Assembly (NCBI GenBank): GCA_902773055.1
Contig: CACYCZ010000078.1
Location: forward strand, 9,482-73,481
Direction: 5' to 3'
DNA: 64,000 nucleotides
Origin: an uncultured Bacteroidales bacterium
Lineage (GTDB): Bacteria > Bacteroidota > Bacteroidia > Bacteroidales > Bacteroidaceae
Shown here: positions 3,246-64,000 of the stretch, one piece after another
How positions within the stretch are numbered: position 1 is the first letter of the stretch
Layout of the letters: each line of letters starts with the position of its first letter
The notes under the pieces: model-generated
The model's input: the letters and a program-made list of their open reading frames with translations, nothing else
Databases searched by the model: none
Told to the model about the DNA's origin: nothing
Made by a program: the position numbers and the translations under genes

Positions 3246-3369
3246 GATGCGAAGTTACGTTTTTTTTCGTTGCCGTCCGATACAATTGCGCCACAATCTC
3301 CCGCCTGATTCCCCCTAAGGGGGAATGAAAGGAATGGAGAGCCCTGAACCGTTCCGCTTTCACTGCCAT

Positions 3370-3474
3370 AAAATTTATGTTTCCCGATGGTGAATATATG
3401 TTCCGCGATGCTGAACGTATGTTTACCGATGGGAAATGTATATTCAGCATCGGGGAACATAAAAAATATCGGGA
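3370..3474. repeat. Dispersed intergenic element, copy A: five tandem 21-bp units (TGAAYRTATGTTYNCCGATGG-like)
   Basis: The units are aaaatttatgtttcccgatgg / tgaatatatgttccgcgatgc / tgaacgtatgtttaccgatgg / gaaatgtatattcagcatcgg / ggaacataaaaaatatcggga. The same architecture recurs at 24738, 44694 and 57517. Confidence 0.8.
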
Positions 3475-3556
3475 ATGCGTACTCTTTCCGACGCCTGAGG
3501 GCACTTCTGGTATCGGAAAGAAAAGAAATTACTGAAACAGGGGGATGGTTACAACG

Positions 3557-4717: not shown

Positions 4718-4742
4718 AACAGAATGGGCAGTACAAGAGGGA

Positions 4743-6936: not shown

Positions 6937-7170
6937 ATCAATCCACTATGCATATATCCTCTTTCCAGTGAGTCGGGTGAGCCATGCCGGCAACGGCAAG
7001 CTCATTTTTTGAACTTTTCCGTTCCATCAGCGACTGCACGTAAGTATTATAAACACAAAATTACAAGGTTTATTTAAATCGTAACACACACTATACCAGA
7101 TATATTTTGACAGAAGGTCGTTTTCTTTTGTCAGTTCCTCTGCCCGGACAGTAACTGAAACACATGCACA

Positions 7171-8876: not shown

Positions 8877-10053
8877 TTTTCTTACAACGTAAAGTGATGA
8901 CATTTATTTCCGGCCATGCACCGAAGCGGAAATTGAGCAACGCCTCGCCTATACCCTTGCTGACAAACAGACAGCGTTTCTCCTCTCGGTAAAGGCCACC
9001 CCATTCCTTGTAAGCCCATGCCGCGGGAGAATAATGGCCTATCTGCAACTGACATGCATGGCTGTGGCCTGAGAGGGTCAACTGTATGTCGGTATCAGGC
9101 AGGACCCTGCGTTTCCAGTGGGTCGGGTCATGGCTTACCAATATCTTGAAAAAGGACTGATGGTGCAGGCTATCGGGTACTCCTGCCAACGCCTTGCCCA
9201 AATCGCCGAGAGAAGGAAACGGCGGGTTGCCATCGTTTTCCACTCCGACAACGGCGATGCTGTCGGTATCGCGTGCGACAACCGACGAGGCATTCAGCAA
9301 AAGTTTCCAACCAGACTTTTCGATGAGGCCTTCCAACTCCTGTACACTGCGGCGGCATGCCTCAGGTGATGACCATTTGCGGTGTACCTGATAGTCATGA
9401 TTACCCATGACGGCATATACTCCATCAGGAGCATGGAGCCGCTCCATTTCCTTGATAAACGGCTGTAATTCACGGGGGTCATAATTAATAAGGTCGCCGC
9501 CAAACAGGATGATGTCTCCTTGCTCTTTCATCAGGGCTTCGGTCACCTTATGAGGAAATGTCGCATCCGTAGCATATGTCCCAAGATGGAAGTCTGAAAA
9601 AAACACAATACGATAGCCGTCAAAGGAGGCCGGCAAGTCATCAAAGGTAAGTTCCTCCTTCGTTACCCTGAGATGATAGATACCTTTGTTGTAACCATAG
9701 CAGCAGACAACTGCCAGCAGGACACAGCATGCTACAGACAGGACTATGACTGTCTTTTCGGCATAGGCTATCCGCCTGAGCATTCTTCCGACGAGACATC
9801 CGAGAGCCATTATCATTACCATTGCCGCACTGCCCAGAATGACTATCGTAGCAAATCCGACAGCCTTATACTCCTCTGGCGAGAATGTGCGATGGGCAAC
9901 AAGTGACATACCCCATAATGGTAACAGCACACCGGGCAAGAAGGCCACTGCCTTCTTCCAGAAAGGCTTCAGCATGTTCCTGAACCGCCACACCAGAAGG
10001 AGTGTCGACAACAGAAAACAAGGTAGCAATATCGTAAAAATGTGCAGCAGCAT
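8860..10053 (-). CDS. Membrane-anchored calcineurin-like metallophosphoesterase
   Basis: An N-terminal multi-TM region is followed by the motifs FFSDFHLG, FGGDLINY, VMGNHDY and LSGHSHA. Confidence 0.75.
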   Translation of the reverse strand: MLLHIFTILLPCFLLSTLLLVWRFRNMLKPFWKKAVAFLPGVLLPLWGMSLVAHRTFSPEEYKAVGFATIVILGSAAMVMIMALGCLVGRMLRRIAYAEKTVIVLSVACCVLLAVVCCYGYNKGIYHLRVTKEELTFDDLPASFDGYRIVFFSDFHLGTYATDATFPHKVTEALMKEQGDIILFGGDLINYDPRELQPFIKEMERLHAPDGVYAVMGNHDYQVHRKWSSPEACRRSVQELEGLIEKSGWKLLLNASSVVARDTDSIAVVGVENDGNPPFPSLGDLGKALAGVPDSLHHQSFFKILVSHDPTHWKRRVLPDTDIQLTLSGHSHACQLQIGHYSPAAWAYKEWGGLYREEKRCLFVSKGIGEALLNFRFGAWPEINVITLRCKKNENTI

Positions 10054-10080
10054 TGTATTCTATATCTATTTTCGGTTGCC

Positions 10081-10971
10081 TCAGAAACTAATATTGGACG
10101 TCAGGAATTGCTTCATTCTTTTTTCCGGCAAGCCACGCCGACGGCTATAATCCCTGAACTGATCTTCCCCTATTTTGCCTACAGCAAAATAGCGTGCGGC
10201 AGGATGGGCTATCATTAAGCCGCTCACCGCAGCGTGGGGCATCATGGCTCCATTCTCCGTCACCCGGATACCTATCACCCCCATGTCTATCAAGTCATTG
10301 AGGATAAAGTTAACACTCTGGTCAGGCAGCGACGGGTAACCAACGGCCGGTCGGATACCCTGAAATTTTTCAGCCAGCAATGCAACTACGGGCAAGTCCT
10401 CCCCAGGGGCATACCCCCACAGTTCACGTCTCACCTTCAAATGGGCCATTTCTGTTGCCGCCTCTGCCAGACGGTCGCTCACGGCACGAGCCATCAGGCT
10501 AAGATAACTGTCATCTGCATAACTGTCTTCCATCTCCTGAGGTACTGCCGTCGCAAAGACACCTAAGCGGTCCTTGGGACCACTTCCTGCAGGACGGATG
10601 AAATCACTCAGACACAAATCAGGGTTGTCGGCTGTCGCAGGATGCTGTTGGCGCAGACATGGCAATAACATTGTCCGCTCTTCATCAAAAATAAGGATAT
10701 CATCCCCCTCTGAACTGGCATCATACAATCCTACACGGCATCTTATCTCATATTTATCATCAAATTCTCCGACCATGGCTAAAGCCTCCTGATACAATCG
10801 CCGGCCTTCCTGCACCAGCAGTAAATGCCGTCCGTCATGGTCTTCTGTCACGTCGTTGCCATTCACTATGGCAGGAACCAGATTGGCTGGAATCTGCCAA
10901 AGATGGAAGAAATAATGCCAATTGATAAACGGCACTGCCTCCCTTACGTGGTATGTCAGCGTATGAAGCAT
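10081..10971 (-). CDS. Stand-alone methionine synthase (MetH) reactivation / AdoMet-binding domain protein
   Basis: FQGIRPAVGYPSLPDQ resembles the MetH activation-domain motif GIRPAPGYPACPEH. At 296 aa the length fits that domain alone. Confidence 0.65.
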   Translation of the reverse strand: MLHTLTYHVREAVPFINWHYFFHLWQIPANLVPAIVNGNDVTEDHDGRHLLLVQEGRRLYQEALAMVGEFDDKYEIRCRVGLYDASSEGDDILIFDEERTMLLPCLRQQHPATADNPDLCLSDFIRPAGSGPKDRLGVFATAVPQEMEDSYADDSYLSLMARAVSDRLAEAATEMAHLKVRRELWGYAPGEDLPVVALLAEKFQGIRPAVGYPSLPDQSVNFILNDLIDMGVIGIRVTENGAMMPHAAVSGLMIAHPAARYFAVGKIGEDQFRDYSRRRGLPEKRMKQFLTSNISF

Positions 10972-11033
10972 TTGTAAATATCTAATTCATGCTTACCCGT
11001 TGCCTCCTTCACTGAAGGCCAACGGTGCGCATC

Positions 11034-11774
11034 TCATTTTTTCCTGGCCAGTTTTCTTGACAGCCTCAACTGTATGACGCCCCATACAGCCTCACCGAAT
11101 ATACTGCTGCTCATCTTGCTTGTTCCCAACCTGCGGTTGATAAAGATGACAGGGACCTCCTTTATTTTGTATCCCAGTTTATAAGCCGTATATTTCATCT
11201 CAATCTGGAACGCATAACCCTTGAAACGGATGGCATCCAGGTCAATGGCTTCCAACACCCTGCGGTTGTAGCAAACGAAACCTGCCGTAGTATCACGCAC
11301 CGGCAAGCCGGTAACGATACGTACATATTTGGAAGCATAATAACTCATCAGTACGCGCTGCATAGGCCAGTTGACGACATTGACTCCGGTGATATAGCGT
11401 GACCCTATCGCCATGTCGTTCCCTTCATCGCGACATGCTGCCAGCAGACGCGGAACATCATTGGGGTCATGGCTGAAATCGGCATCCATTTCAAATATAT
11501 ATTCATATCCCTGCTCCAAGGCCCATTTGAAACCTGTGATATAGGCTGTACCCAGCCCCAACTTGCCACTGCGCTCTATGATAAACAGGTGGTCCTTGAA
11601 TTGTTCTTCCTGCATCATATCCTTCACGATAGAGGCCGTGCCGTCGGGTGAGTTGTCATCAATAATCAGAATATCAAGTTTCTCATCCAATTTAAAAATT
11701 GCATGGATGATGTTGCTGATATTCTCCATTTCGTTATACGTGGGAATGATGATAACGTTCTTGTCTGTCTGCAT
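11034..11774 (-). CDS. GT2 polyprenol-phosphate mannosyl/glucosyl-transferase (Dpm1-like)
   Basis: Motifs are IIIPTYNEMENI, ILIIDDNSPDGT and EMDADFSHDP. Confidence 0.8.
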   Translation of the reverse strand: MQTDKNVIIIPTYNEMENISNIIHAIFKLDEKLDILIIDDNSPDGTASIVKDMMQEEQFKDHLFIIERSGKLGLGTAYITGFKWALEQGYEYIFEMDADFSHDPNDVPRLLAACRDEGNDMAIGSRYITGVNVVNWPMQRVLMSYYASKYVRIVTGLPVRDTTAGFVCYNRRVLEAIDLDAIRFKGYAFQIEMKYTAYKLGYKIKEVPVIFINRRLGTSKMSSSIFGEAVWGVIQLRLSRKLARKK

Positions 11775-12052
11775 AATCTTCGTTTTTTACGTTCTTGGGA
11801 AAACAAAGATACGTTTTCTTCCTCAGACAACCAAGCCCAAGGCCTGTTTTTTTTCCTTTTTCCTGATATGGAGACAAAATCACCATGCAGTATTCTGAGA
11901 CAGATTTGATTTTGGCAGGACAACCACACCGGCACATAGGTTGCCGACACGTCACTGACACTACAGGAAAAAGCCCGGGAGTCATCATTTTCATTCTACA
12001 GAATTCACAATTAATTATTAACATTATCTTTTACTTCTCTCCACCACCCCTC

Positions 12053-12144
12053 CAGAAGGGCTTACAGAGGGGGTAAATCTGGCAGGCCTGTGCGTTTTCA
12101 CTGGCAGGCCTGCCAGATTCAACGCGCAGGCCTGCCGGTGAAAA
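12053..12144 (+). repeat. ~90-bp intergenic element with three CAGGCCTG palindromes phased at 22 bp (copy 1)
   Basis: GG|CC centres lie at 12086/87, 12108/09 and 12130/31. The middle site is the perfect 16-bp palindrome CTGGCAGGCCTGCCAG. The element aligns by eye at about 70-75% with the reverse complement of 31766..31855. Confidence 0.75.
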
Positions 12145-12343
12145 CGCTCTGGGCAGAGAAAAAAAACTCCTGACCCGGCAGGCCGGGAAATGCCATTTTT
12201 GAGCCATAAGCACAACACTTATTAACATCTGTTAACAGAATTTCAGAAACACAGGCGCCGGCTTCATTCTACGTACAGAAAGGACTGCCGGAGAAAGCAG
12301 AGAAAAGGAAGATGGAAAAAAGAGCAGAAATGATTATTTTTTT

Positions 12344-12351
12344 TATCTTTG
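12344..12351 (+). promoter_or_regulatory. Bacteroidota -7 box TATCTTTG (TAnnTTTG) upstream of the PHP phosphoesterase gene
   Basis: It is an exact TAnnTTTG match about 36 nt upstream of the ATG at 12387. Confidence 0.4.
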
Positions 12352-12386
12352 CATTTTCAGAATATATACCAAAAAAAATAACAACA

Positions 12387-13535
12387 ATGAAAAGATTACT
12401 GCTGACATGGGCAACACTGTGCCTGACAGGACTGCTGGCACTCGCCCAAGTGCCCCATAGGATGGTTATTCCTGACGTAGCGGGCTACAAGACCCTGAAG
12501 GGTGACATGCATATCCACACCGTATTCTCAGACGGCTCTGTATGGCCGACCACACGCATTGACGAAGCCATGATGGAAGGACTTGACTTTATAGCCATTA
12601 CAGACCATATGGACGAACGGCTGCAAAAACAGAAGCAGAAAGGACTGATGAACAACGACAGAAACGACTCCTACAAAATTGCTGCTGCAAGAGGCAAGGA
12701 GAACGATGTCCTGGTAATTCACGGCGGAGAGATTACACGCGGCATGCCTCCCGGTCACTTTAACACAACATTTATCAGCGACGGCAACGCCATAGCAAAA
12801 GCCATTGATGCTGAAACTGACGACTACAAAAGCATGGATGCCGGGCTCCGGGTTGCCCGCGAGCAAGGCGGTTTTCTTGTATGGAACCACCCTCATTGGT
12901 CTCGCCAGGCTCCCAACGGAGCCAAATGGTATGACGAACATACCAAGTTGCTGAAAGCCGGACTGATGCAGGGCATAGAAATATTCAACCAGTTTGAAGG
13001 GGTTTGCAAAGAGGCTTTCCACTGGGCCGTGACCCACGGACTGACCATCGTCTCCGGAACAGATGCCCACCAGCCGCTTTTCAAGTGGATGGACATGACC
13101 ACAGAGTTGCGCCCCGTGACACTGGTATTTGCCAAGGAGAGAACGGAACAGGCCATACACGAGGCCCTGCTGGCTCACCGCACAGCTGTATTTGCCGAGG
13201 GCAAGGTCTACGGCACGAAGGAGAACATACTGCCCCTGAACGAGGCCGTACTGACTGTGAAGAAAGCCAACTTCTCTGAAAAGAAAGTCAAGGTAGTACT
13301 CCATAACAGCAGTTCAATCCCCATCATACTGACCAAGGCTCCCGGAGGAGAAGCCTACATTTACCCAACCTATATATTGCTTCAACCATTTGGAGACTAT
13401 GCCTTTGACCTGAGCATGACGGACAGGGACAAGCCCCTCGACAAAACATCCATAGACATGCCGTTCAGGATAGAAAACTTCTATACCGATGCCGACGTGG
13501 CATTGCTGAGAACCATCAGAGTAAGCAAGAAATAA
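12387..13535 (+). CDS. Secreted PHP-domain phosphoesterase (Sb-PDE-like)
   Basis: I place the start at MKRLLLTWATLCLTGLLALAQ (signal peptide). PHP metal motifs GDMHIHTVFSDGS and IAITDH are present. Confidence 0.65.
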   Translation: MKRLLLTWATLCLTGLLALAQVPHRMVIPDVAGYKTLKGDMHIHTVFSDGSVWPTTRIDEAMMEGLDFIAITDHMDERLQKQKQKGLMNNDRNDSYKIAAARGKENDVLVIHGGEITRGMPPGHFNTTFISDGNAIAKAIDAETDDYKSMDAGLRVAREQGGFLVWNHPHWSRQAPNGAKWYDEHTKLLKAGLMQGIEIFNQFEGVCKEAFHWAVTHGLTIVSGTDAHQPLFKWMDMTTELRPVTLVFAKERTEQAIHEALLAHRTAVFAEGKVYGTKENILPLNEAVLTVKKANFSEKKVKVVLHNSSSIPIILTKAPGGEAYIYPTYILLQPFGDYAFDLSMTDRDKPLDKTSIDMPFRIENFYTDADVALLRTIRVSKK

Positions 13536-13598
13536 CAACGGGAAATACAAAATACCACCGTCCATTAATAAGAAATCCATACACAGAAAGCTGAAAAA

Positions 13599-16500
13599 AT
13601 GAAATCATTATTGGCCACAGCCATCATGCTGGTATCACTGCTGCCGGCAAAATCAACCACACCGATGTGGATGCGCTACGTTTCCATATCACCACAAGGC
13701 GATGCCATTGCCTTTACCTATAAAGGAAGTATCTACCGCACAAGCGTCCAGGGAGGCGAAGCCGTCAGGCTGACCTCAGGACAAAGCTATAACAGAGACC
13801 TGATATGGAGCCCTGACGGCAAGGAAATTGCCTTTGCCAGTGACAGAGGCGGAAGTTTTGATGTCTACGTCATGTCGTCAAACGGCGGCGAGGCACGGCG
13901 TCTGACCACCCTGACAGGCAACGAATTCCCGACGGCATGGACCCCCGACGGCAAAAACGTCCTGTTTCAAGCTGCCATACAAGACCCTGCCAAGAGTGTA
14001 TTGTTTCCAAGGGCCGTATACTCAGAACTATATGCCATTCCAGCCAAGGGAGGTATGATATCTCAGATCCTCGCCGTTCCGGCTGAGAAAGTATGCTATG
14101 ACCCCAAGGGAGAATTTCTTCTCTACCAAGACGTAAAAGGAATGGAGGACAAATTCAGGAAGCATCATACATCCTCAGTCACACGAGACATCTGGAAATA
14201 TGATATCAAGACCAAGAAACATACCAACCTGACCCAGCGCGGCGGTGAAGACAGGAATCCCGTCCTGTCGCCCGACGGCAAGGAAATATATTTCCTCAGC
14301 GAGCGCAACGGGAACAGTTTCAATGTCTATGCCATGGGGACAGAAGCCGGCAGTCAGGCAAAGGCTTTAACCCAGTTCAAGACCCACCCGGTAAGGTTCC
14401 TGACAATCAGCAAGGGGGGAATCCTGTGCTACACCTATGACGGTGAAATATACACACAGGCCGGCGCTTCCGCATCACCACGCAAAATCAGCATCACGGT
14501 AAACGACGACACAGAGCCCCGGCCTTCACTGGTATCGGTAAGCGGCGGGCTGAGCAGTTCTGCCATATCCCCCAATGGGAAGGAAGTAGCCTTTGTGCAC
14601 CGCGGTGAAGTGTTCGTCACCTCCATGGACTACACCACGACGAAACGCATTACCAACACCGTTGCTGCCGAGCGCACCGTGACATGGGCCGACGACAGGA
14701 CACTGGTCTATGCCAGCGAGCGCGATGGACTATGGCAACTCTACAAAGCCACTATTGCCCACAAAGACGACCAGAATTTTGCCAACGCTACCGTAATAAA
14801 GGAAGAACATATCCTGGCATCCAACACAATAGAACGGGCTTATCCCCAGTTCTCGCCCAACGGCAAAGAATTGGCATTTATAGAGAACAGGGACAAACTC
14901 ATGGTAATGGACATGGCTTCTAAGAAAGTACGCCAAGTTACTGACGGAAGCCAGTGGTTCAGCACCTCAGGAGGGTTTTCCTACAGCTGGAGCCCCAATG
15001 GAAAATGGTTTGCCCTGGAAATGATAACCAACGGGCATGATCCCTACAGCGACGTAGCCATAGTAAGTGCACAAGGAGGCAAAGTGACCAACCTGAGCCG
15101 CAGCGGATATTTCAGCGAATCACCCTGCTGGACAGCCGACGGCAATGCCGTTGTATTCCTGACCGACCGCTACGGAATGCGCAGCCATGCATCATGGGGT
15201 TCATTGAGTGATGTCATGATAGCATTTGTCAACCAAGACGCTTATGACAAATTCCAACTGAGCAAGGAAGACTATGAATTGCGTAAGGAACTGGAGAAAC
15301 AGCAGAAAAAAGACAAAGAAGAGGCTGACAAGAAAAAAGCAAAAGACAACAAGGACAAGAAAGAAAAAGACAAGAAAGACAGTATAAAGGCCGAGCCGGA
15401 AGTACAGATAGAGCCTGACGGCATAGAAGACCGCATTGTCAGGATTACACGAAACTCAGACATGGTGGTCAACTGCATCGGAGCAGCCGACAACAAAATA
15501 TACTATTTCGTCAACGAAAGCGGTGGATGCAACGTATACTGCTACAACCTTATTACTAAGGAGCGCAAATCCGTAGGCTCAATCCCTGACGGCAGTGTCA
15601 GCGTATCCAACAGCAAAGATTTCAAGACAATAGCCTGTGTCGGCTATCAGCATATCAGGAAACTTGAAACCGCCGGCGACAAGCTTTCCAATGTCAGCTA
15701 CAGCGGAAGCTATTACCTGGACCACGCAGCCGAGCGTGAGTACATGTTCAACCATGTATGTCTGCAAGAAAAGAAACGTTTCTACAATGTCAACATGCAC
15801 GGTGTAGACTGGGACAAGATGTGCTCTGCCTACCGCAAGTTCCTGCCTCATATAAGCAACAACCGGGATTTTGCCGACCTGCTGGGCGAACTGCTGGGCG
15901 AACTGAATGTATCACATACCGGCGGACGCTATTATCCGGACTCTCCCGCCTTGACGACAGCCAACCTGGGACTGCTGTACGATTGGAACTATACAGGAAA
16001 GGGAATGAAAGTTGACGAAATCGTATGCGGTGGCTCCTTTGACCATAAGAACACCCGGATGAAAGCCGGTTGCATAATTGAGAAAATCAATGACAAGACC
16101 TTTGAAACCAACAGTGAATTCTACAGCATAATGGAAGGACTGTCGGGCCACAAAACCAGCGTAGGTATATACAACCCGGCGACAGGCGAACACTGGACAG
16201 AAGTAACCCTGCCCATCTCCGACAGAAAATTAACTGACCTGCTCTACAAACGCTGGACAAAACACTGTGCTGAAGAGGTTGAGCGCTTGTCAAACGGACG
16301 TCTGGGATATGTACACATCAAATCAATGGACGACGCATCCTACCGCACCGTATACAGTGACATCCTCGGCAAATACAACACCAAGGAAGGCATCGTCATT
16401 GATACACGCAACAACGGAGGCGGCAGACTGCACGAAGACATCGAAGTGCTGTTCAGCGGTGAGAAATACCTGACCCAAGTCGTCCGCGGCAAAGAAGCCT

Positions 16501-16859
16501 GCGACATGCCCAGCCGACGCTGGAACAAGCCCAGTATCATGCTGCAATGCGAGGCAAACTACAGTAATGCCCATGGTACACCCTGGGTATATAAATACAA
16601 GAATATCGGCAAACTGGTTGGAATGCCTGTACCAGGCACCATGACATCTGTATCCTGGGAAACCCTGCAGGATCCATCTCTTATTTTCGGAATACCCATA
16701 ATCGGCTATAAGACGAAAGATGGCTCATATTTGGAGAACTCCCAATTGGAACCCGATTTCAAAGTAAGCAACGCACCTGAAGATATTGTCGAAGGACGAG
16801 ACGCTCAGCTGGAAACAGCAGTAAGAGAATTGCTTAAACAAATAGATAACAAACACTAA
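13599..16859 (+). CDS. Tricorn-protease-like S41 peptidase (TolB/PD40 beta-propellers + PDZ + S41 domain)
   Basis: It has a signal peptide and repeated SPDGKEIAF/SPNGKE PD40 motifs. The C-terminal region contains IDTRNNGGGRLHEDI, an S41-type motif. It is 1086 aa long and has a K/E/D-rich insert at about 15290-15400. Confidence 0.85.
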   Translation: MKSLLATAIMLVSLLPAKSTTPMWMRYVSISPQGDAIAFTYKGSIYRTSVQGGEAVRLTSGQSYNRDLIWSPDGKEIAFASDRGGSFDVYVMSSNGGEARRLTTLTGNEFPTAWTPDGKNVLFQAAIQDPAKSVLFPRAVYSELYAIPAKGGMISQILAVPAEKVCYDPKGEFLLYQDVKGMEDKFRKHHTSSVTRDIWKYDIKTKKHTNLTQRGGEDRNPVLSPDGKEIYFLSERNGNSFNVYAMGTEAGSQAKALTQFKTHPVRFLTISKGGILCYTYDGEIYTQAGASASPRKISITVNDDTEPRPSLVSVSGGLSSSAISPNGKEVAFVHRGEVFVTSMDYTTTKRITNTVAAERTVTWADDRTLVYASERDGLWQLYKATIAHKDDQNFANATVIKEEHILASNTIERAYPQFSPNGKELAFIENRDKLMVMDMASKKVRQVTDGSQWFSTSGGFSYSWSPNGKWFALEMITNGHDPYSDVAIVSAQGGKVTNLSRSGYFSESPCWTADGNAVVFLTDRYGMRSHASWGSLSDVMIAFVNQDAYDKFQLSKEDYELRKELEKQQKKDKEEADKKKAKDNKDKKEKDKKDSIKAEPEVQIEPDGIEDRIVRITRNSDMVVNCIGAADNKIYYFVNESGGCNVYCYNLITKERKSVGSIPDGSVSVSNSKDFKTIACVGYQHIRKLETAGDKLSNVSYSGSYYLDHAAEREYMFNHVCLQEKKRFYNVNMHGVDWDKMCSAYRKFLPHISNNRDFADLLGELLGELNVSHTGGRYYPDSPALTTANLGLLYDWNYTGKGMKVDEIVCGGSFDHKNTRMKAGCIIEKINDKTFETNSEFYSIMEGLSGHKTSVGIYNPATGEHWTEVTLPISDRKLTDLLYKRWTKHCAEEVERLSNGRLGYVHIKSMDDASYRTVYSDILGKYNTKEGIVIDTRNNGGGRLHEDIEVLFSGEKYLTQVVRGKEACDMPSRRWNKPSIMLQCEANYSNAHGTPWVYKYKNIGKLVGMPVPGTMTSVSWETLQDPSLIFGIPIIGYKTKDGSYLENSQLEPDFKVSNAPEDIVEGRDAQLETAVRELLKQIDNKH

Positions 16860-56434: not shown

Positions 56435-57382
56435 ATGACTACCGCAAACATGAAACTCGCCCTCCTGCTGGCAGGACTGCTGCCGCTGACGCTGCCGGCA
56501 CAGAAAACCTACTCCTACAACGGAACACCCGTCGACTTCTCTGATAACAGAGTGAAGGTCACCCCCATAGGGTCCCTTCAGCCTGAGGCCGTAACAGGCT
56601 TTCAGGGCATGGCCCTCTACGAGGACTGGCTCATCAGCCTTGAGCACTCCGGCGTGGCTACCGTCTACTCGCTCAAGGGCGAAAAGATGCAGCGCAAAGG
56701 CGCCCTGAAACTGGGTTCGTACAGCATGAGCAATCATTGCAACTCGGCTAATTTCGGCTACGCCAAGGCCCGGCAGGAGGACAAGCTGCCGCTGCTCTAT
56801 GTTTCGCGCACCAATACCGCAAGAACAGCCGACGGCCTGGACCGCATCGCCTATGTGGAACGGCTGGACCCTGTAGCCATGAAATCCGAACTGGTACAGC
56901 GCATATACCTCAACACTTCGCCTCAGACCATCACAGGCAACAGCACCTGGGCTATTGACAAGGAAAACGGACTGCTGGTATGCCTGACCAACACGGTACG
57001 CAACAAGGGGGTCGGCAACAGACACTGGATGCTGACTTTCCGCCTTCCCGAATATCGCGGACCGCAGGACAGCCTCGTCATCCTGACCCAGGCTGATGCC
57101 CTGGAGAACTACTGTCTGGAGGACTACTACAACAAACCCTTCTCGCCCATCATGCAGGGACTGAACGTCAAGGACGGCCTCCTGTTCATCCCCGTCGGTG
57201 TAGGCACCCCCAAGGAGCCCTCCATACTTTATGTCTGGAACATGGGCACCCACCGCATGCAGAACGAAATCAACCTGCAGGAAGCCATACCCTCTGAACT
57301 GGAGGACAGCGACTACCGTAACGGCAGCATATACCTGCAGACACAGAACATGGGCATACTGCGACTGGACTTCCTGAAATAA
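56435..57382 (+). CDS. Hypothetical secreted protein
   Basis: I chose the internal start MTTANMKLALLLAGLLPLTLPAQ (signal peptide) rather than the GTG start at 56261, which would cross the divergent promoter region. Confidence 0.5.
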   Translation: MTTANMKLALLLAGLLPLTLPAQKTYSYNGTPVDFSDNRVKVTPIGSLQPEAVTGFQGMALYEDWLISLEHSGVATVYSLKGEKMQRKGALKLGSYSMSNHCNSANFGYAKARQEDKLPLLYVSRTNTARTADGLDRIAYVERLDPVAMKSELVQRIYLNTSPQTITGNSTWAIDKENGLLVCLTNTVRNKGVGNRHWMLTFRLPEYRGPQDSLVILTQADALENYCLEDYYNKPFSPIMQGLNVKDGLLFIPVGVGTPKEPSILYVWNMGTHRMQNEINLQEAIPSELEDSDYRNGSIYLQTQNMGILRLDFLK

Positions 57383-57516
57383 AGGGTATATATCTGAAAA
57401 AAGCCGGTCTCACGACCGGGAGAAGGCCTCACAGCCACCCCCCTACTGAATAATACGGTATCCCCTGCGCAGCAGGGATACAGGTTGCCCAGCATGGCGA
57501 CACAAGACTATCGGTG

Positions 57517-57621
57517 TGCCCGATGCAACTATGTTCCGCATCGGTGAATGTATGTTCAGCAACGGCGAACGTATGTTTCACGATGCGGAATATACATCCT
57601 TCATCGGTGAACATAACATCT
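57517..57621. repeat. Dispersed 5 x 21-bp element, copy D
   Basis: The units are gcccgatgcaactatgttccg / catcggtgaatgtatgttcag / caacggcgaacgtatgtttca / cgatgcggaatatacatcctt / catcggtgaacataacatctc. Confidence 0.8.
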
Positions 57622-57719
57622 CCCGGGGAGAAATTTAATCTGCATCCCTGTCCTATATCTCCTCCAACGGGCTACGGCATTTTTAGGCCGCCCCCGCAAT
57701 GACAAAGAAAAAAAATCTG

Positions 57720-57727
57720 TATCTTTG
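57720..57727 (+). promoter_or_regulatory. -7 box TATCTTTG upstream of the SBP lipoprotein gene
   Basis: It is an exact TAnnTTTG match about 76 nt upstream of the ATG at 57803. Confidence 0.4.
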
Positions 57728-57802
57728 CCTGTTGATAACCACCGCTGTGGAACAACGGCAAACAGCCTCCACCCACGACAAAAAAACATTCAACCCGGAA
57801 AC

Positions 57803-58990
57803 ATGAAACTGAAAATAACCACGCCCCTGCTGCTCACTGTCGCCCTCGTCATACACGGGACAGTGGGTCTCACCTCATGCTCTTCAACCAAGGAGAAGTC
57901 TGCCGAGCAGGAACAGACAGCGGCCATTGCCGACAAGGTATGGACCTACAGCCTGAGCCACCCCGAAGGGTTTACCCTCGACATCCGCACCATGACAGAG
58001 CCGACAAACGGCATTGCCGCCAGCTATGCTGCCACACAAGACTGCCACGGACGTGACCAGCTCGGCAAGGTGGTCAGCCATGCCCTGAAAAACGACGGAT
58101 ATGTGGGCGGCTGGTATAACGGCAAGGACGGGCGCTATTATTTTGACAGTTCCAGGCTGTTTGCAGAAACCGACATAAGGAACGCCATACTGTTTGGAAG
58201 GCAAAACGGCCAGCGGTCGGTGTATATCCTTTCATCCCACACCGATGTTCCGCTGGACGGAACCGCCTGGAGGATTATCGACAGAGACACCCTGATTATC
58301 GGCACGACGGGCGACTACAGACCGCTGTCGTTCCGCGAACCGGAGGGTGACTACTGGGGATTTGGCATTGAGGTGGCACGCGAAATCGCTGCACGGCTCG
58401 GCGTGAAGACGAAGTTTGTCGGAACATCATGGCCGACACTGACCGCCGACGTCCTGGCAGAGCCTCAGAGGTTTGACCTCGCCATCGGAGGGATAACCAT
58501 CACCGATGCCCGCCGCGAGACGATGCTCATGAGCGAAGGCTATCTGGCCAACGGGAAAACCATCCTGTGCCGGGCCGAAGACGCCGGCCGCTATAAATCA
58601 CTGGCCGACGTCGACAAGCCGGGAGTGCGCATAATGGTGAATCCGGGAGGGCTGAACGAGAAGTTTGCCAACGACAACCTGACCCATGCCACCGTCACTG
58701 TCCACCCGAAAAACGAGGAAATCCCCTCACTCATTGCCGAAGGAGCAGCCGACATCATGATAACAGAAATAACAGAAGCACCATATTATGTGCAGACTGA
58801 CACCCGGCTCGCAGCACCCCTGCTAAAAGAACCATTTACACGGGGAGAAATCGGCATACTGATGCGAAAAGGACAGGAAGACCTGTTGCAGCTGGTAAAC
58901 AGCATCATCCGGCAGATGAAGCACAACGGCTCCCTGCAGCGACTGCATGAAAAATACGGACTCGTATACGCCTACGGAGAAACACCGTGA
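57803..58990 (+). CDS. Lipoprotein with an N-terminal unknown domain + family-3 solute-binding (amino-acid ABC / PBP2) domain
   Basis: The start is at MKLKITTPLLLTVALVIHGTVGLTSC (lipobox). The SBP_bac_3-like core is LIIGTTGDYRPLSF..GFGIEVAREIAARLGVK..WPTLTADV..FDLAIGGITIT..R. Confidence 0.65.
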   Translation: MKLKITTPLLLTVALVIHGTVGLTSCSSTKEKSAEQEQTAAIADKVWTYSLSHPEGFTLDIRTMTEPTNGIAASYAATQDCHGRDQLGKVVSHALKNDGYVGGWYNGKDGRYYFDSSRLFAETDIRNAILFGRQNGQRSVYILSSHTDVPLDGTAWRIIDRDTLIIGTTGDYRPLSFREPEGDYWGFGIEVAREIAARLGVKTKFVGTSWPTLTADVLAEPQRFDLAIGGITITDARRETMLMSEGYLANGKTILCRAEDAGRYKSLADVDKPGVRIMVNPGGLNEKFANDNLTHATVTVHPKNEEIPSLIAEGAADIMITEITEAPYYVQTDTRLAAPLLKEPFTRGEIGILMRKGQEDLLQLVNSIIRQMKHNGSLQRLHEKYGLVYAYGETP

Positions 58991-59015
58991 GGAAAACAAG
59001 AAAAACAAGACATTG

Positions 59016-59354
59016 ATGAACATCGAGGAATATCGCGAATATTGCCTCTCGCTGGGTGCCGACGTGGAAGAGAAACTGCCATTTACCGCCTTCAAGTATG
59101 CCAGCGGGGTACTGGTATTCTATGTCCACGGCCATATGTTCTCGTTCTTTGACTGCGACAAATTCTGTGTCATCACACTCAAATGTCAGGCAGACCGCAT
59201 CGAAGAACTGAAAGCGCAATACGACTGCATCGTAAAGCCTTTCAACATGTCGCCCAAGTACTGGATCGGCATTGATGTCCAAACCGCCCCCGACGACCTG
59301 CTGCGCCGACTGACCAGCAATTCCTACGAGATCGTAAAAGCACAATATCAGTGA
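59016..59354 (+). CDS. MmcQ/YjbR-family protein
   Basis: The start at MNIEEYREYCLSLGADVEEKLPF follows the family N-terminal pattern as I remember it. The 112-aa length fits. Confidence 0.65.
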   Translation: MNIEEYREYCLSLGADVEEKLPFTAFKYASGVLVFYVHGHMFSFFDCDKFCVITLKCQADRIEELKAQYDCIVKPFNMSPKYWIGIDVQTAPDDLLRRLTSNSYEIVKAQYQ

Positions 59355-59362
59355 GATGTGGG

Positions 59363-59417
59363 AAAAAATGCAAGACACTACCGAATGAAATCAGGAACAG
59401 GCAGTTTGCATTTTTTT
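59363..59417 (+). terminator. A/T-rich hairpin + T-run after the MmcQ-like gene
   Basis: AAAAAATGCAA (59363-73) pairs with TTGCATTTTTT (59405-15), with a 31-nt loop. Confidence 0.35.
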
Positions 59418-59427
59418 TGATATTCAA

Positions 59428-59587
59428 GATGCGTTACACCGTTACAGTGTTACAGTTAGAAAACAGGTAACCCCAAAATGTCAAAAGTGAATTCTATATA
59501 TTATAAATACGTATATTTATATATATAGGCCTTTTAGGGTACGCGAAAGACTTTGCAGGAACTGTAACACTGTAACGGTGTAACGCA
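59428..59587. repeat. 29-bp perfect inverted repeat flanking a 102-bp AT-rich spacer
   Basis: The left arm ATGCGTTACACCGTTACAGTGTTACAGTT (59428-56) is the exact reverse complement of 59559-87. Each arm holds three GTTACA hexamers at 8-bp spacing. Confidence 0.9.
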
Positions 59588-60082
59588 TGAAAAATTTTTG
59601 TTTCAAAAGAAAAAAGTTGCTCCGAAATTGAAAACCGCAACAAGGTCGCCCCTGTCTCCCATCGTCAATAAGAGAGGCTGATTTTGCGACGAAGCCATGT
59701 AACAATTGCGCCACCGCATCGTAGCAAAGTTTCCAAAGCCATGGAGCAATTTGCGAACTTCTATACAAACAGAAAAAGCACAGCATCAAACGGCGTGGAT
59801 GCCAAAGGCGACACGGACTTACCGCACACTCGAATGATGTAAGTGCTTCTTCGTCTGCAAAATTACAGAAAGTATCAGGGAAAGACAAGGATGAGACGAA
59901 GAAAATTATTAGCATGAGATGAAAATATAACTCCCGAACAGGAGGCACTTCTGCGCGGACACAATTTCCGCGAATATCCTACCATTCAGGAGTTATCTGC
60001 GGACAAAGTTAGTGAAACTTCCGCAAGTGAGCAAGAAAACACAGGGGAAAATGGCGGAAGTACGGATTTAGGGAATCACGGA

Positions 60083-63000
60083 ATGACGGAGTTACGGAAG
60101 CTGAAGGAACTCAAGGGCAAACAGACAGGCCGGACGGACCTGCTGCGGAGAATGGGACTGATAACCGTGCAGACGGACAAGGCCGTGAACGGCAAGATGG
60201 TGCAGCAGTTTACCCGTAAGCAGTTGGACGGGATGACGGAATCAGGGAAGGATGGATCTACGGAATCAGGGAAGGAAGGATCTACGGAATTAGGAAACGG
60301 CGAAAATAATACTGAGGCTGACGCTATGCCTATGGTGAAGGTGAACGGTAAGATGAAGCCTGACTACATGGCAGCTCCCGTGGAGCGGACACGCAGACAT
60401 ATCTATGAGGAGAAAGGTCTGAGCCGCGAGGAAGGCGATGCTTTCGTGCAAGCCAACATCGACGCTGCAAGCAAAGAACTGGAGAAGCGTGAGAAGAAGG
60501 CTCCGGTGATGGGAACAGACATTGACGACTATCTGGAAAAGAAACAGGCATGGCAGGCAGAAATGGATGGTCTGCAACGTCAGAAAGAATACTGGGAGAG
60601 CGTCAAGAAAGAACAGGACAAGACAACCGGCATGAACTTCTTTGCCGGCCAGGACAAAGTGTCTGCTGAAATGCAGGAAGCACAGAGGGATCTTGCCGGT
60701 GACACGGCTGCCATGGAGTTGCTGTCAGACACAGCTCCTCACACACTTGAGGAACTGGCGTCGGTGATGCTGAGTCAAGGCAAGAAGGGTGTCAAGCTGA
60801 TGCTCAACGATGAGACAGAGGATGGCAAGATAGTGAAGGGTGTCAGTTCGCATACAGGCTACTCCCGTGCTGATTTGGAGAAGATGCCATTCCTGTTTGC
60901 CACTCGTGCCAAAGGTGGCATGAGTCCTGAGGAGTTTGCTCACGAACTGCTGACGGCAGCCCGTGAAGAGGGTATTCCTTTTGACGAGTCGGATGCGAAT
61001 GCCGGTTTGACTGCAGTGCTTAACCTGCTGGGTGACGTCAGGAGTCAGAGTGACATCAACAACTACATCCAAAGCCACCGTATAGCAGAGGCGCGCAACA
61101 TACACGAAGCCAACCTGCGACAGGAAGCGGAATGGCAGGAACAGCAGCGGCTGGCAAAACAGGTTGCATCACGTCTCGGCATGAGCGAGGAGGAATGGGA
61201 TGCTTACATCAGTAGCATAGAGGCAGAACTGGCTGCACAGGATGCTTACTACGCCTCTGACGATTACAGGAACAACATAACACAAACAGATACAAATGAC
61301 AACGGAACAACAGGAACAGGCCCAGCTGCTGAAGGAGCAGGTGTTGAGGGAACTCAAGGGCAAGCAGACAGGCCGGACGGACCTGCTGCGCAGAATGGCA
61401 CAGAAGAAGGAAAAGAAATACCAGCCGATGACAGACGAGGAAGTGATGGAAGCTCTGCAGGACGAGAGCAGAGTGGTTTGGCGCAAGCCGAAGAAGTAGA
61501 CGAGAACGGACATCCATTCATTAAATCATCTGACGGAACAATTAATTTCGGTTACATTGGTGAGGACAGTGGACTGCAACCCGCTCCTATTAGATTAAGC
61601 GAGGGATTCCAAGACGCAGAAGGTAAAGGATATGGTCTTGCTCACATTGAAGCAAATCACGGCAAGCAAATAAGAGATGCTGGATTTGCTTCAGTAAAGG
61701 ACTTTGTCGCGTTTGTTGCACAAAACTATGACGAAGATAATATACGCGTCGGTAAACGTCGTGAAAATGGAAATACGACTTATCTGCTACAAGTTCAGGA
61801 TGAACATGATAACACCCTTTTTGTTGAGATGTCGCGTGATGGTTCATATTGGAATGTAAACAGTGCCGGTATCTTCAGAAAAGGCTATTCTAACAAAAAA
61901 GAAACGGTCACCAAGACCGAACCTCAGCAACCGAACAATGCCGTTCCGACAGACTCTTCGCTTTCTGTGAATGGGGAGAGCGGCATTACATCCACAGAAC
62001 CCAACGGTGAGTCAACCGTTTCCACTGGCAAAGTTAGTGAAACTTCTGAAACTGCGCAAGAAAACGCCGGGGAAAATAACGGATCTACGGAATCACGGAA
62101 GGATGGATCTACGGAATCAGGGAATGACGGAGCTACGGAGGCTGAGTTTGCCGGCAATCTTTTTGATGAGGTAAATGCTGCCATTGCCAAGGCGGAGTCG
62201 GAAGTGGACACCTCTCCTACCGACGCTCAGAAGGAAGCGGGCAACTACAGGAAAGGACACGTCAGGATAGACGGCTACGACATCACCATAGAGAACCCGA
62301 AGGGCAGCGAGCGCAGCGGCACCGATGCCAAGGGTAACAGATGGACGTCAAAGATGAACAACACCTACGGATACATCAGAGGCACCGAGGGCGTGGACGG
62401 CGACCATATAGACGTGTTCCTCTCGGATGATCCGACGACAGGTGACGTGTTTGTCGTTGACCAGGTGAATCCTGAGAACGGTGAGTTTGACGAGCATAAG
62501 GTGATGTACGGCTTCCCCGACATGGAGAGTGCGCGAAAAGCCTATCTGTCGAACTACTCCAAAGGATGGAAAGGCCTCGGAAACATCACTCCGGTAAGCA
62601 AGGAGGAGTTCAGGAAATGGATAGAGAGCAGTCACCGCAAGACGAAGCCGTTTGCCGAGTATAGCAGTGTGAAGCCGCTGGAAGAAGCTGCGGAGTCAGG
62701 GAATCACGCAACTACGGAGGCTGAGGATATTGTCAAGCTGTCGGACGAGGTGAAGGATGCTATGCGTGAATATTCTCAGGATATGTCCACAGAGAAATAT
62801 GTGGCATGGAAGGAGAAGGAGAGCCGTCTGCTGGCTGCTCTGGGCAGTCTGACGGATGATGAGTTGGACGGCTATGTAAAGAGCGAGAACGGCACGCTGC
62901 GCGATGCTGCACGCAAGGAGCAGGGCCGACGGATGACCATCCGCAACATAGACACGATGTTCAATGACGGCATCAAGGCGCAAGGCGACATCTCAGTGGA

Positions 63001-64000
63001 GAGCAAGCCGGGCAAGTTCAACGTGGACGTGTTCGCATCAAAGGATGAGAGAAGGGAGTCGATGAACGGCGTGTACCATGACGAGAGCGGCTACGGTGTG
63101 GCATCGGACGGTGTGGTGCTGATATACGACAAGAACCTCTATGACAAGAGCAAGAATGGCAAGAGTGTCGCCACGCACAAGATTAAAGGCCGCTATGAGA
63201 AAGGCGACGTACTGCAGGAGGACAGGTATCCGTCATGGCAGAAGGTGATACCTCACTACGGCAGGAAAGCCAGGGTGGACATGAAAGGTCTGCGCGACTT
63301 CCTCGCCGGTGTGGCAGAGAAGCAGAAAGAGAGATGGGATGCCTATAAGGCTGACGGCGGCAAGTCGAGTATGAAGAACTATACGGAAAATAACGAAGTG
63401 ATACTGCGCCTGCCTGACGGCTCTTACATCGGCATGAGGGTGAACGCTCTCAACGCGCTGGTCAGCGGAGCCACGGAGATGGGTCTTGACGAGTTGCAGT
63501 GGGAAGGCACGGACATGTCGAGGGCTTTGTTCTTCGAGGGCGAGCGAGGCGGCGTGATGGCTATGCCTGTGGTTATCGACGGGTCATTCGTGGAGGGGAA
63601 CGATTACTTCTATGACATGAGCGCCGGAGCTTCAACCGGTTACAAAAAGGCACCGGTTGACAGCGACATGCAGCCATCTGCAGAGGCGGAGGCTGAAGTA
63701 GAATCTACGGAATCAGGGAAGGATGGAACTACGGAATTAGGGAATGACGGAATTACGGAGGCTGACATGGGAAGTGAGCCACTGATAAAGGGCGACAAAT
63801 GGGAACGCACGCCGGCTCCGGAGAAAAACACCGTCAATGGCAAGAGAGGGCAGACACGCTATGATGTCACCTATACGATAGGAGAAGGCAAGACGAAGTA
63901 TGGCATGACTAAGGCCGACTCCGACATGCTGCATTATATTTTGGAAGATTATAATGACGACTTGAGGGCGATATGGAATACTTACGAGCGTGGAGGCATC
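60083..64000 (+). CDS. Giant modular 'polyvalent-protein'-like ORF (partial; continues past the right edge; start uncertain)
   Basis: The frame with codon starts at positions = 2 mod 3 is open from 59918 to the window end. It is not in the ORF track because it has no stop. The first ATG is at 60083. Globular modules are separated by recurring GSTESGKDG-type linkers. One module has an inorganic-pyrophosphatase-like motif (GNYRKGHVRIDGYDITIENPKGSER..VDGDHIDVFLSDDP). Confidence 0.7.
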   Translation, partial: MTELRKLKELKGKQTGRTDLLRRMGLITVQTDKAVNGKMVQQFTRKQLDGMTESGKDGSTESGKEGSTELGNGENNTEADAMPMVKVNGKMKPDYMAAPVERTRRHIYEEKGLSREEGDAFVQANIDAASKELEKREKKAPVMGTDIDDYLEKKQAWQAEMDGLQRQKEYWESVKKEQDKTTGMNFFAGQDKVSAEMQEAQRDLAGDTAAMELLSDTAPHTLEELASVMLSQGKKGVKLMLNDETEDGKIVKGVSSHTGYSRADLEKMPFLFATRAKGGMSPEEFAHELLTAAREEGIPFDESDANAGLTAVLNLLGDVRSQSDINNYIQSHRIAEARNIHEANLRQEAEWQEQQRLAKQVASRLGMSEEEWDAYISSIEAELAAQDAYYASDDYRNNITQTDTNDNGTTGTGPAAEGAGVEGTQGQADRPDGPAAQNGTEEGKEIPADDRRGSDGSSAGREQSGLAQAEEVDENGHPFIKSSDGTINFGYIGEDSGLQPAPIRLSEGFQDAEGKGYGLAHIEANHGKQIRDAGFASVKDFVAFVAQNYDEDNIRVGKRRENGNTTYLLQVQDEHDNTLFVEMSRDGSYWNVNSAGIFRKGYSNKKETVTKTEPQQPNNAVPTDSSLSVNGESGITSTEPNGESTVSTGKVSETSETAQENAGENNGSTESRKDGSTESGNDGATEAEFAGNLFDEVNAAIAKAESEVDTSPTDAQKEAGNYRKGHVRIDGYDITIENPKGSERSGTDAKGNRWTSKMNNTYGYIRGTEGVDGDHIDVFLSDDPTTGDVFVVDQVNPENGEFDEHKVMYGFPDMESARKAYLSNYSKGWKGLGNITPVSKEEFRKWIESSHRKTKPFAEYSSVKPLEEAAESGNHATTEAEDIVKLSDEVKDAMREYSQDMSTEKYVAWKEKESRLLAALGSLTDDELDGYVKSENGTLRDAARKEQGRRMTIRNIDTMFNDGIKAQGDISVESKPGKFNVDVFASKDERRESMNGVYHDESGYGVASDGVVLIYDKNLYDKSKNGKSVATHKIKGRYEKGDVLQEDRYPSWQKVIPHYGRKARVDMKGLRDFLAGVAEKQKERWDAYKADGGKSSMKNYTENNEVILRLPDGSYIGMRVNALNALVSGATEMGLDELQWEGTDMSRALFFEGERGGVMAMPVVIDGSFVEGNDYFYDMSAGASTGYKKAPVDSDMQPSAEAEAEVESTESGKDGTTELGNDGITEADMGSEPLIKGDKWERTPAPEKNTVNGKRGQTRYDVTYTIGEGKTKYGMTKADSDMLHYILEDYNDDLRAIWNTYERGGI
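60230..60300 (+). repeat. Coding tandem repeat (about 21-24 bp units, GGATCTACGGAATCAGGGAAG-like) encoding the (G)STESGKDG linker
   Basis: Related copies lie at about 60046-60100, 62078-62145, 62691-62724 and 63698-63766. All are read in the same frame of the long ORF. Confidence 0.8.

Follow-up and report, generated by a model that had tools for sequence, protein, structure and literature searches.

What does a giant open reading frame (ORF) at the edge of a bacterial contig represent: a gene whose product is delivered to new hosts, or what is left of one? The question is raised by a 64,000-nucleotide (nt) stretch of DNA from an uncultured Bacteroidales bacterium (contig CACYCZ010000078.1, positions 9,482 to 73,481; the whole stretch is called the window here), which ends in a frame on the plus strand that runs without a stop from position 59918 to the last base at 64000. 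An earlier, sequence-only reading had taken this frame for a gene of the 'polyvalent protein' type, belonging to a phage or a conjugative element and encoding a protein that is delivered to new hosts to counter their defences. Our analysis points to a probable answer of a different kind: the open frame is likely to be a recently acquired, recombinationally truncated remnant of a phage-derived gene, standing alone or within a defective prophage and not expressed here as a delivered protein.

We first consider whether the frame is coding at all. It comprises 1,360 full codons and runs off the window end, in agreement with the stretch of more than 4 kb and at least 1,300 codons originally noted, and the nearest in-frame stop on its 5' side is the TGA at 59915-59917. 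By our own arithmetic the chance of such a run is about (61/64)^1360, or ~1e-28 at ~50% GC, and at the window end the remaining frames on either strand are open for no more than ~260 nt. We therefore conclude that the frame is real coding sequence. Stop-codon recoding was considered as well and rejected, given that 1,360 codons pass without any stop and that the break upstream of them includes a frameshift.

The encoded protein consists of at least five modules with linkers between them, and independent domain evidence is available for three of these: an inorganic pyrophosphatase, a DnaN-like fold and a family defined by the second module. The GSTESGKDG-type linker motif that had been seen to recur is present five times in the open frame, and a second motif, KVSETS..EQEN, is present twice. 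The repetition extends to the DNA level. A unit of 24-33 nt encoding GSTESGKD is repeated at 60058-60312, 62075-62139, 62686-62718 and 63703-63767, all on the plus strand; the internal linker 3' of module ii (62029-62139) combines a type-A repeat with 24-nt GSTESGKD units, and the linker repeats at 62686-62718 and 63703-63767 were delimited by DNA repeat comparison. A search with the full-length protein was drowned by these linker words and returned 1 match, so the searches were run module by module.

The part of the frame described as pyrophosphatase-like (module iii) is identified by PF18823, the type I inorganic pyrophosphatase domain (InPase) of the polyvalent-protein clade, at 62222-62626 on the plus strand. 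The match covers profile positions 1-135 of 135 with an E value of 3.7e-61 and a score of 205 bits against a cut-off of 26.8. Its translation contains the acidic motif DGDHID together with DEHK, residues that we take to be the active site of an enzyme whose activity is predicted. When the modules were scanned one at a time against Pfam at E values up to 10, the InPase alone was matched; NCBIfam returned no family for the open-frame protein, and PHROGs gave nothing useful for the modules.

Where do intact versions of such a gene reside? The block formed by module ii and the InPase was found on 14 IMG/VR contigs, at residues ~1,200-2,700 of ORFs of 4,400 to more than 5,600 codons. Protein identity between the window block and these giant ORFs is 51-66% (71-79% for module ii alone). 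Pfam scans of two of the giant ORFs returned LPD14, ddrB-ParB, InPase, PBECR2, SNF2/helicase, LPD38 and ART-PolyVal, and the relatives that are collinear with the window also carry LPD1, LPD3, LPD5, LPD13, LPD14, LPD38, ART-PolyVal, PBECR1, PBECR2, PBECR5 and MuF_C. The module order i-iii-iv is collinear with P0006 (5,688 amino acids, aa) and P0017, and the order ii-iii-iv is collinear with P0034 in a single alignment of 748 columns. Judged by this domain content, the giant relatives are bona fide polyvalent proteins sensu Iyer et al. (2017; PMC5512222). With PF18823 in the frame itself and LPD14, LPD38, ART-PolyVal, PBECR2 and ddrB-ParB in its relatives, the assignment of the frame to the polyvalent-protein type holds.

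The window frame resembles the described class (PMC5512222) in joining many unrelated effector-type domains in one polypeptide and in carrying the clade-specific InPase, and its relatives resemble it in their LPD3, LPD13, LPD14, LPD38, ART-PolyVal, PBECR, ddrB-ParB, SNF2 and MuF_C domains and in their portal context. Unlike the described members, the window copy is 5'-truncated, startless and, on its upstream side, chromosomal. In addition, its DnaN-like module and module ii are not in Pfam, and the words 'clamp' and 'DnaN' occur nowhere in the text of PMC5512222; its linkers are conserved as DNA repeats, and neither 'linker' nor 'low-complexity' occurs in that text.

Every relative whose mobile-element context can be read is a phage. 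One contig (L028) encodes RecT, an integrase, ORFs of 164 and 297 aa, the 5,688-aa gene, a P22-type portal and an SU10-type capsid, and on another (L014) the P22-type portal gene follows directly after the giant gene. The InPase domain PF18823 is present in 472 phage records, several of which label the feature a virion, tail or minor-head protein. This distribution agrees with the survey in which polyvalent proteins of the InPase type were found mainly in (pro)phages and virion packaging was inferred for them; a third class of polyvalent proteins, with neither phage nor conjugative context, was also listed there (Iyer et al., 2017; PMC5512222).

A cultured example is available in the temperate Bacteroides phage BF1-TP2 (GenBank PQ571263), whose genome encodes an integrase, a repressor and a portal together with a giant protein of 3,633 aa, gp68. 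We group gp68 and the 'DarB-like antirestriction' protein of BKO1-TP3 as the close known system. The InPase of gp68 is 68% identical, and a homologue of module i lies 5' of it. The gp68 gene is preceded by ORFs of 182 and 441 aa, as in the IMG/VR relatives; in nearly all relatives an ORF of ~165-180 aa and one of ~300-470 aa precede the giant gene. Unlike the window copy, gp68 is full-length and belongs to a complete phage genome, and local searches found no match in it to module ii or to the DnaN-like module.

The position of the giant gene bears on how its product may be used. The upstream 165-aa ORF of the relatives aligns over its full length but weakly with PF24072 (T7_gp14; E 1.3e-3, 19 bits against a cut-off of 27), and a PHROGs comparison of the upstream ORF gave no support for T7 gp14. 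The internal core proteins gp14, gp15 and gp16 of T7, DarB of P1 and the virion RNA polymerase (vRNAP) of N4 are virion-packaged, ejected giant proteins. By analogy, the place of the relatives' giant gene beside the portal and after two small genes would fit a packaged and ejected protein. Unlike those systems, the giant proteins show no significant sequence similarity to gp15, gp16, DarB or vRNAP, and we infer packaging in their case.

An unusual combination was seen on one IMG/VR contig of 8,992 nt (L013), in which a 1,162-aa polyvalent fragment containing module ii and the InPase (13-3498) is followed by genes of the microvirus type for replication (PF23343) and capsid F (PF02305) at 4378-7779. 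This contig is either a microvirus prophage beside a polyvalent relic or chimeric.

Of the two contexts proposed by the sequence-only reading, the phage context is upheld in the relatives by their integrase, RecT, P22-type portal and SU10-type capsid. The conjugative context fares differently. It would make the frame cargo of a conjugative or integrative-mobilizable element, transferred through a type IV secretion system like ~40% of described polyvalent proteins, and a single point speaks for it, namely the frequent location of polyvalent proteins in conjugative elements (Iyer et al., 2017; PMC5512222). Set against this, no relaxase, type IV secretion system or tra/mob gene was found in the annotated 20 kb upstream (39-59 kb of the window) or in any related locus examined, the plasmid matches were typed as non-mobilizable in 37 of 37 cases, and the InPase type is mainly a (pro)phage one (PMC5512222). 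We consider transfer as conjugative cargo very improbable.

The remaining modules extend this picture. Module i (60326-61290, plus strand), to which no function is assigned, has homologues confined to phage giant proteins: they lie at aa 1317-1432 of the giant protein of L003, at aa 835-1014 of BF1-TP2 gp68 (E 1.9e-11) and at aa 1287-1626 of P0006 (44% identity). It falls in neither a Pfam nor a PHROG family, and the scans of viral and metagenome sequences with module i as query gave no match. Module v (63770-64000, plus strand) is cut by the window end; as the sequence-only reading had delimited it, it behaves as a unit that recurs in giant proteins, with segments of P0029, P0033, P0035, P0037, P0042 and P0046 at 45-56% identity. 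Past module v, LPD3 follows after ~110-120 aa in P0029 and P0033, with ART-PolyVal after LPD3 in P0029, and in P0037 ART-PolyVal follows after ~260 aa. The unseen 3' part of the window gene therefore probably continues with LPD3 and ART-PolyVal, as in these relatives of module v. Searches with modules iv-v returned a single weak match among the genome contigs (36% identical, on a contig of 1.5 kb) and no match in the viral and metagenome scans.

Module ii (GYGLAHIEANHG) occupies 61487-61891 on the plus strand and was likewise correctly singled out as a unit: it is a conserved domain of the alpha+beta type that has two invariant histidines and defines a family of its own. It was found at 17 IMG/VR loci, 14 of them with 71-79% identity, and in 66 matches from the protein collection. 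In the alignment of the family (A2) an API motif, H68, H73 and a YW pair are invariant. The AlphaFold2 model (predicted local distance difference test, pLDDT, 85) has two helices followed by a four-stranded sheet and gave no significant match to folds in the PDB, where BrnT was reached at E 0.62. PBECR profiles run on 29 relatives matched PBECR3 in 7 and PBECR1 in 5, all below threshold with a best E of 0.0053; the window's own module ii reached E 0.2 with PBECR3. From these profile similarities, module ii is probably a divergent PBECR-type putative RNase. The family is absent from Pfam and widespread in Bacteroidales.

Module ii also occurs outside the collinear block. Stand-alone proteins of 188-202 aa (L043:8001-8567, encoding P0122; P0110-P0130), with the same S/T/N-rich linker at the end, are encoded in Bacteroidales chromosomes. 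One such gene lies between a toxin-antitoxin or defence-like cluster (HigB, WYL, ParE/YoeB, radical SAM) and recA. In a more distant giant protein of 2,373 aa (L019:5528-12646) module ii is present in tandem, at aa 1264-1408 and 1492-1636, and this is a module duplication inside a phage gene.

Module iv (62741-63640, plus strand) consists of a helical N-terminal part (~62741-63060) and a short domain resembling DnaN, the beta sliding clamp (~63068-63616). The clamp-like part suspected from the sequence was recovered by profile, structure model and Foldseek alike, in a short partial version. In single-sequence searches module iv matched neither Pfam, DNA_pol3_beta included, even at E 10, nor any PDB entry by phmmer. 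A profile built from alignment A1 found DnaN chains in the PDB with a best E of 2.6e-4 and aligned the DnaN motifs R..LNGV and G.(F/Y)P.(Y/W)..V.P. The AlphaFold2 model (pLDDT 91.4; predicted template modelling score 0.88) gave DnaN in all of the best 50 Foldseek matches in the PDB, with E values of 1e-6 to 6e-5, template modelling (TM) scores of 0.36-0.45 and root-mean-square deviations (rmsd) of 7-13 A. In BFVD the best-scoring entries were a protein annotated 'large polyvalent protein-associated domain' and, from phages, short 'PolIII beta-like' proteins (160-250 aa). A canonical DnaN has three domains per chain, forms a dimeric ring and matches Pfam DNA_pol3_beta; the structured part of module iv is ~190 aa long and shows none of these features. 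On the model and the aligned profile, module iv is a DnaN fold with its two motifs in a short, partial version and not a full three-domain clamp.

A structural counterpart for comparison is the 217-aa 'PolIII beta-like processivity factor' of Bacillus phage vB_BcM_Sam46 (Foldseek E 2.4e-7; TM 0.50/0.58; rmsd 4.6). Module iv shares with such short phage DnaN-like proteins the fold, a similar size and the motifs R..LNGV and G.(F/Y)P.(Y/W)..V.P; unlike them, it is embedded in a multi-effector protein and is no stand-alone replication factor. Among 1.84 billion proteins we found 85 representative relatives of module iv at E<=1e-3, none of them covered by Pfam. Many lie at aa ~1,300-3,100 within proteins of 4,000-6,755 aa, and many others stand alone at ~220 aa. 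The stand-alone homologues include P0032, P0036, P0049, P0052, P0057 and ~30 more, and ten of them, when scanned, had no Pfam match above threshold.

We then asked what became of the 5' end of this gene, which the sequence-only reading had suspected of being truncated or recombined. Both parts of the suspicion proved correct. Polyvalent material starts outside the open frame, in a frameshifted relic at 59640-59917 (plus strand) that was read by three-frame translation and comparison with L021, the nearest relative at the DNA level. The relic holds a C-terminal module-ii-like part (..SIREADFA.., ..EQFANFYTNRK..) and then a type-B linker (SSAKLQKVSGKDKDETKK), of which the segment 59850-59906 occurs twice in L021 at 93%. 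Searching with the YjbR of the window led to L030, a contig of a near-identical strain that carries a short allele of the locus; it is 99.3% identical to window positions 56451-59893 and then diverges. The allele junction thus lies at 59893/59894, inside the type-B linker repeat, with the left side common to the short allele and the right side specific to the long one. Beyond the junction L030 enters the start of a PBECR-like module (44-46% identity to phage giant proteins), which is cut short by a stop after 60 codons.

The short allele also reveals a neighbour of the junction. About 90 nt past the relic stub lies the 3' end of a tRNA-Ser(tga) gene on the minus strand (3722-3807 of L030), with HSP20 and GH28 genes following, and the site equivalent to the junction is ~270 nt from the tRNA-Ser gene. 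tRNA genes are classic phage integration targets, and the window material may have been acquired by integration or recombination at this tRNA site. A 23-mer taken from L030 on the tRNA side had no exact counterpart in the JGI metagenomes.

On the long allele, the join is followed at once by damage. Relative to L030 the window has a 1-nt deletion near 59822, the in-frame TGA at 59915-59917 (plus strand) closes the frame, and stops occur in all three plus-strand frames within 59900-59930. An independent metagenome contig, L036, matches 58538-60000 at 99.66% and carries the same deletion, the same junction and the identical TGA. The frameshift, the stop and the junction are therefore no assembly or sequencing artefact, and sequencing error was rejected as the cause of the frameshift and stop on the same ground. 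It had to be considered that chromosome and phage reads had been chimerically joined through repeats, because linker repeats do break assemblies here and many contigs stop at 59587 or 60000. With L036 spanning the junction independently, such a chimera is scarcely credible.

Between the TGA and the first undamaged module lies a patchwork of linker copies and module fragments (59918-60325, plus strand). In order, it contains a 25-aa tail of another module, which is matched in P0018; a type-A linker (60004-60099); an out-of-frame linker (60102-60161); a short stretch echoing the beginning of module i; and GSTESGKDG repeats (60224-60312). The type-A linker is 77% identical as DNA, and in frame, to 62029-62124, as the resemblance noted earlier between an upstream and an internal linker had indicated. 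The out-of-frame linker is a 60-nt sequence 92% identical to 61345-61404 at an offset of 1,243 nt. Near the 5' end it reads LKELKGKQTGRTDLLRRMGL, and both internally and in L021 it reads the linker EGTQGQADRPDGPAAQNGT, which in L021 is translated as ADRPDGP..NGTEEGK. One 60-nt sequence is thus used in two reading frames within a single open frame, the out-of-frame copy staying open by chance. GC and AT skew switch sign or jump at ~60 kb, and from 60326 onward no scars are seen.

Could the truncated copy still be expressed? The ATG at 60083 is indeed the first possible start, no earlier in-frame ATG, GTG or TTG being present in the open frame. In a single motif search the Bacteroidetes-type -7 box (TAnnTTTG) was absent from the plus strand between 59300 and 60400, and a scan for sigma-70 promoters and terminators yielded no usable signal. 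Upstream in the window, the two small ORFs conserved 5' of the giant gene in relatives are missing, and the genes there are ordinary (GDSL lipases, MFS, GntR, ROK, a solute-binding protein and YjbR). With no native start, no -7 box and no upstream gene pair, delivery of a protein to new hosts, as originally proposed, is therefore doubtful for the window copy, which we take to be inactive at present.

The junction itself raises a further possibility, namely that the phage is intact and the window holds the 3' half of its giant gene. One crossover between a linker of that gene and the relic would have inserted the circular phage genome and split the gene across the prophage ends, and excision would restore it. 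The junction does lie in a shared linker repeat beside a tRNA gene, the relatives encode RecT and an integrase, and the 3.7 kb past the scars are intact and collinear. However, the incoming side has stops in three frames (59894-59930), and the next 400 nt hold further scars, including the out-of-frame linker, which would be impossible in an intact phage gene; moreover, L021 and L022, the closest relatives, form short islands that contain no other phage genes. We regard a split but restorable prophage gene as distinctly unlikely.

A boundary of another type precedes the relic. Between the yjbR terminator and the polyvalent material lies a perfect inverted repeat of 29 nt (59429-59457 and 59560-59588) with a 102-nt AT-rich spacer. 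It is the only one in the window, where 0 are expected by chance, and it is kept in L030 and L032-L041. This repeat is a boundary feature and at most a candidate for association with the gene. An invertible promoter between the arms may exist but found no support, the spacer orientation being uniform in 11 of 11 contigs. Rfam returned for 58.9-64 kb a spurious hairpin, far below threshold, as its sole match. Six short contigs, drawn from different metagenome samples, stop exactly on the last base of the right arm (59587/59588), and L033 departs from the window sequence within that arm, at 59570. The contig ends at the right arm suggest population-level variation that starts at the inverted repeat.

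How recently was the gene still functional? L021 is 89-93% identical to the window in patches, scrambled and with deletions, one of which joins the first half of the InPase, at a GDV common to both, to the middle of module iv without shifting the frame. Over the InPase segment the two copies differ by 17 synonymous changes and 1 non-synonymous change, which corresponds to a synonymous divergence (dS) of 0.36 and a ratio of non-synonymous to synonymous divergence (dN/dS) of 0.013. We therefore conclude that the window and L021 copies diverged as functional genes and were broken recently. Recurrent recent capture from phages with fast deletion would fit these sequence comparisons, and an ancient fossil would not.

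Other chromosomes hold scarred, deleted relatives as well (L022-24 and L025, besides L021). In L022 a 6.6-kb island (9782-16600) lies between genes for an acyltransferase and a phosphofructokinase and consists of four broken ORFs with polyvalent fragments only: a truncated module ii, LPD3 with ART, and an ORF of 1,491 aa with LPD13, InPase, LPD3 and ART. An inverted-repeat-rich, AT-rich stretch precedes it. The break points of L022, L023 and L024 are largely shared, except that one ORF of 316 aa is 288 aa long in L024, and five further contigs are similar. The sequence-only reading had named an absence of mobile-element genes downstream as its own refutation; several close relatives sit in chromosomes without any such genes, and by that measure its mobile-element part would be refuted.

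Intact genes, too, are found alone in chromosomes. P0034 (3,293 aa; L026:6787-16668 and L027:2764-12645) and P0007 (3,136 aa; L029:10001-19411) have N-termini of their own, and no phage or conjugative genes were found in their readable flanks of up to 10 kb (L029 ends 467 nt past the gene). The phage-free flank covers both sides of P0034 and the left side of P0007. Their surroundings are housekeeping genes (Lon, TGT, LptFG, SerRS, PutA), and both lie near genes for DUF5063, a 3'-5' exonuclease and an RlmI-like methylase, with flanks only ~68-74% identical. Next to P0007, a tRNA-Pro(tgg) gene on the minus strand (L029:19402-19477) overlaps the stop of the giant gene by 10 nt with its 3' end. 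L029 and L030 are thus two independent loci where a polyvalent gene or relic and a minus-strand tRNA gene adjoin at their 3' ends.

These solo genes bring into view a functional, host-resident reading of the window frame, in which a 'domesticated' or autonomous polyvalent gene uses an internal start and is kept by selection for the cell or as a single-gene island. P0034 has the same order of module ii, InPase and module iv and the same GKVSE linker type, P0034 and P0007 share neighbours in spite of the divergence of their flanks, the window frame is open over all its 1,360 codons, and its dN/dS is very low. The window copy, however, has no native N-terminus and shows a frameshift, stops in all frames and a patchwork of scars on its 5' side, and the Bacteroidetes -7 box is absent. 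The low dN/dS is common to L021, where the InPase has been halved by deletion, and so reflects the history before capture. We hold a maintained solo gene to be unlikely at this locus.

In total, polyvalent material stands alone amid housekeeping genes at six chromosomal loci (the window, L021, L022-24, L025, L026/27 and L029). One-gene islands are not what random prophage decay predicts, and the pattern remains odd. A tentative idea, which we regard as unlikely, is that the chromosomal copies are no debris but form a class of tRNA-adjacent islands of polyvalent modules that are free of phage genes and swap effector modules with phages through the DNA-conserved linkers, some of the islands being intact genes of 3,100-3,300 aa that have stayed in one neighbourhood across distant Bacteroidales. 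If this were true, the islands would be a reservoir of modules for phages, or a counter-weapon held by the host.

Several points weigh against our preferred explanation, a truncated phage-derived remnant. The 3' part of the gene and its neighbours lie beyond the window end, and a complete prophage or a normal gene end may be present there. The 3.7 kb from 60326 to 64000 are free of scars and collinear with intact relatives, and translation from the ATG at 60083 or 60326 is possible. The intact, phage-free solo relatives P0034 and P0007 imply that chromosomal copies are not always debris, and the six loci with polyvalent-gene material alone go unpredicted by random prophage decay. In addition, the link of the relatives' upstream gene to T7 gp14 is weak (E 1.3e-3) and lacks PHROG support, and the promoter test was one motif search.

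Taken together, we propose the following history for a phage-derived remnant. The intact form would be carried by temperate phages of Bacteroidales whose portal is of the P22 type and whose capsid is of the SU10 type. This gene, with a length of 4,400 to more than 5,600 codons, would come after the two small genes conserved in relatives; in two relatives the portal gene follows it directly. Packed into the capsid, its giant product would leave the particle together with the ejected DNA as a string of independent effector domains, in the order module i, the PBECR-like putative RNase with its two histidines, the pyrophosphatase, the short DnaN-like clamp mimic and, probably, LPD3 and an ADP-ribosyltransferase. 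The window copy would be the surviving middle-to-3' portion, joined by recombination in a linker repeat to an older relic near tRNA-Ser. It would thereby have come to lack the N-terminal ~1,300 codons, the two upstream genes, an integrase and a recognisable start or promoter, its modules having presumably been under strong purifying selection until recently.

What, then, does this locus add? The class of polyvalent proteins was described in 2017, and the window gene is one more member of it, a broken one. It contributes two recurrent modules outside Pfam, the short DnaN-like clamp mimic and the His-His module ii. A clamp mimic within a giant protein that may enter the cell together with the DNA suggests that it directly interferes with partners of the host replisome or recruits them. 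The linkers suggest a route by which such proteins are rearranged, as they are conserved at the DNA level and contain the allele junction as well as part of the scars. Lastly, the chromosomal islands of polyvalent material alone, two of them beside tRNA 3' ends and some intact, would, if they are maintained, represent a new kind of locus for exchange between host and phage.

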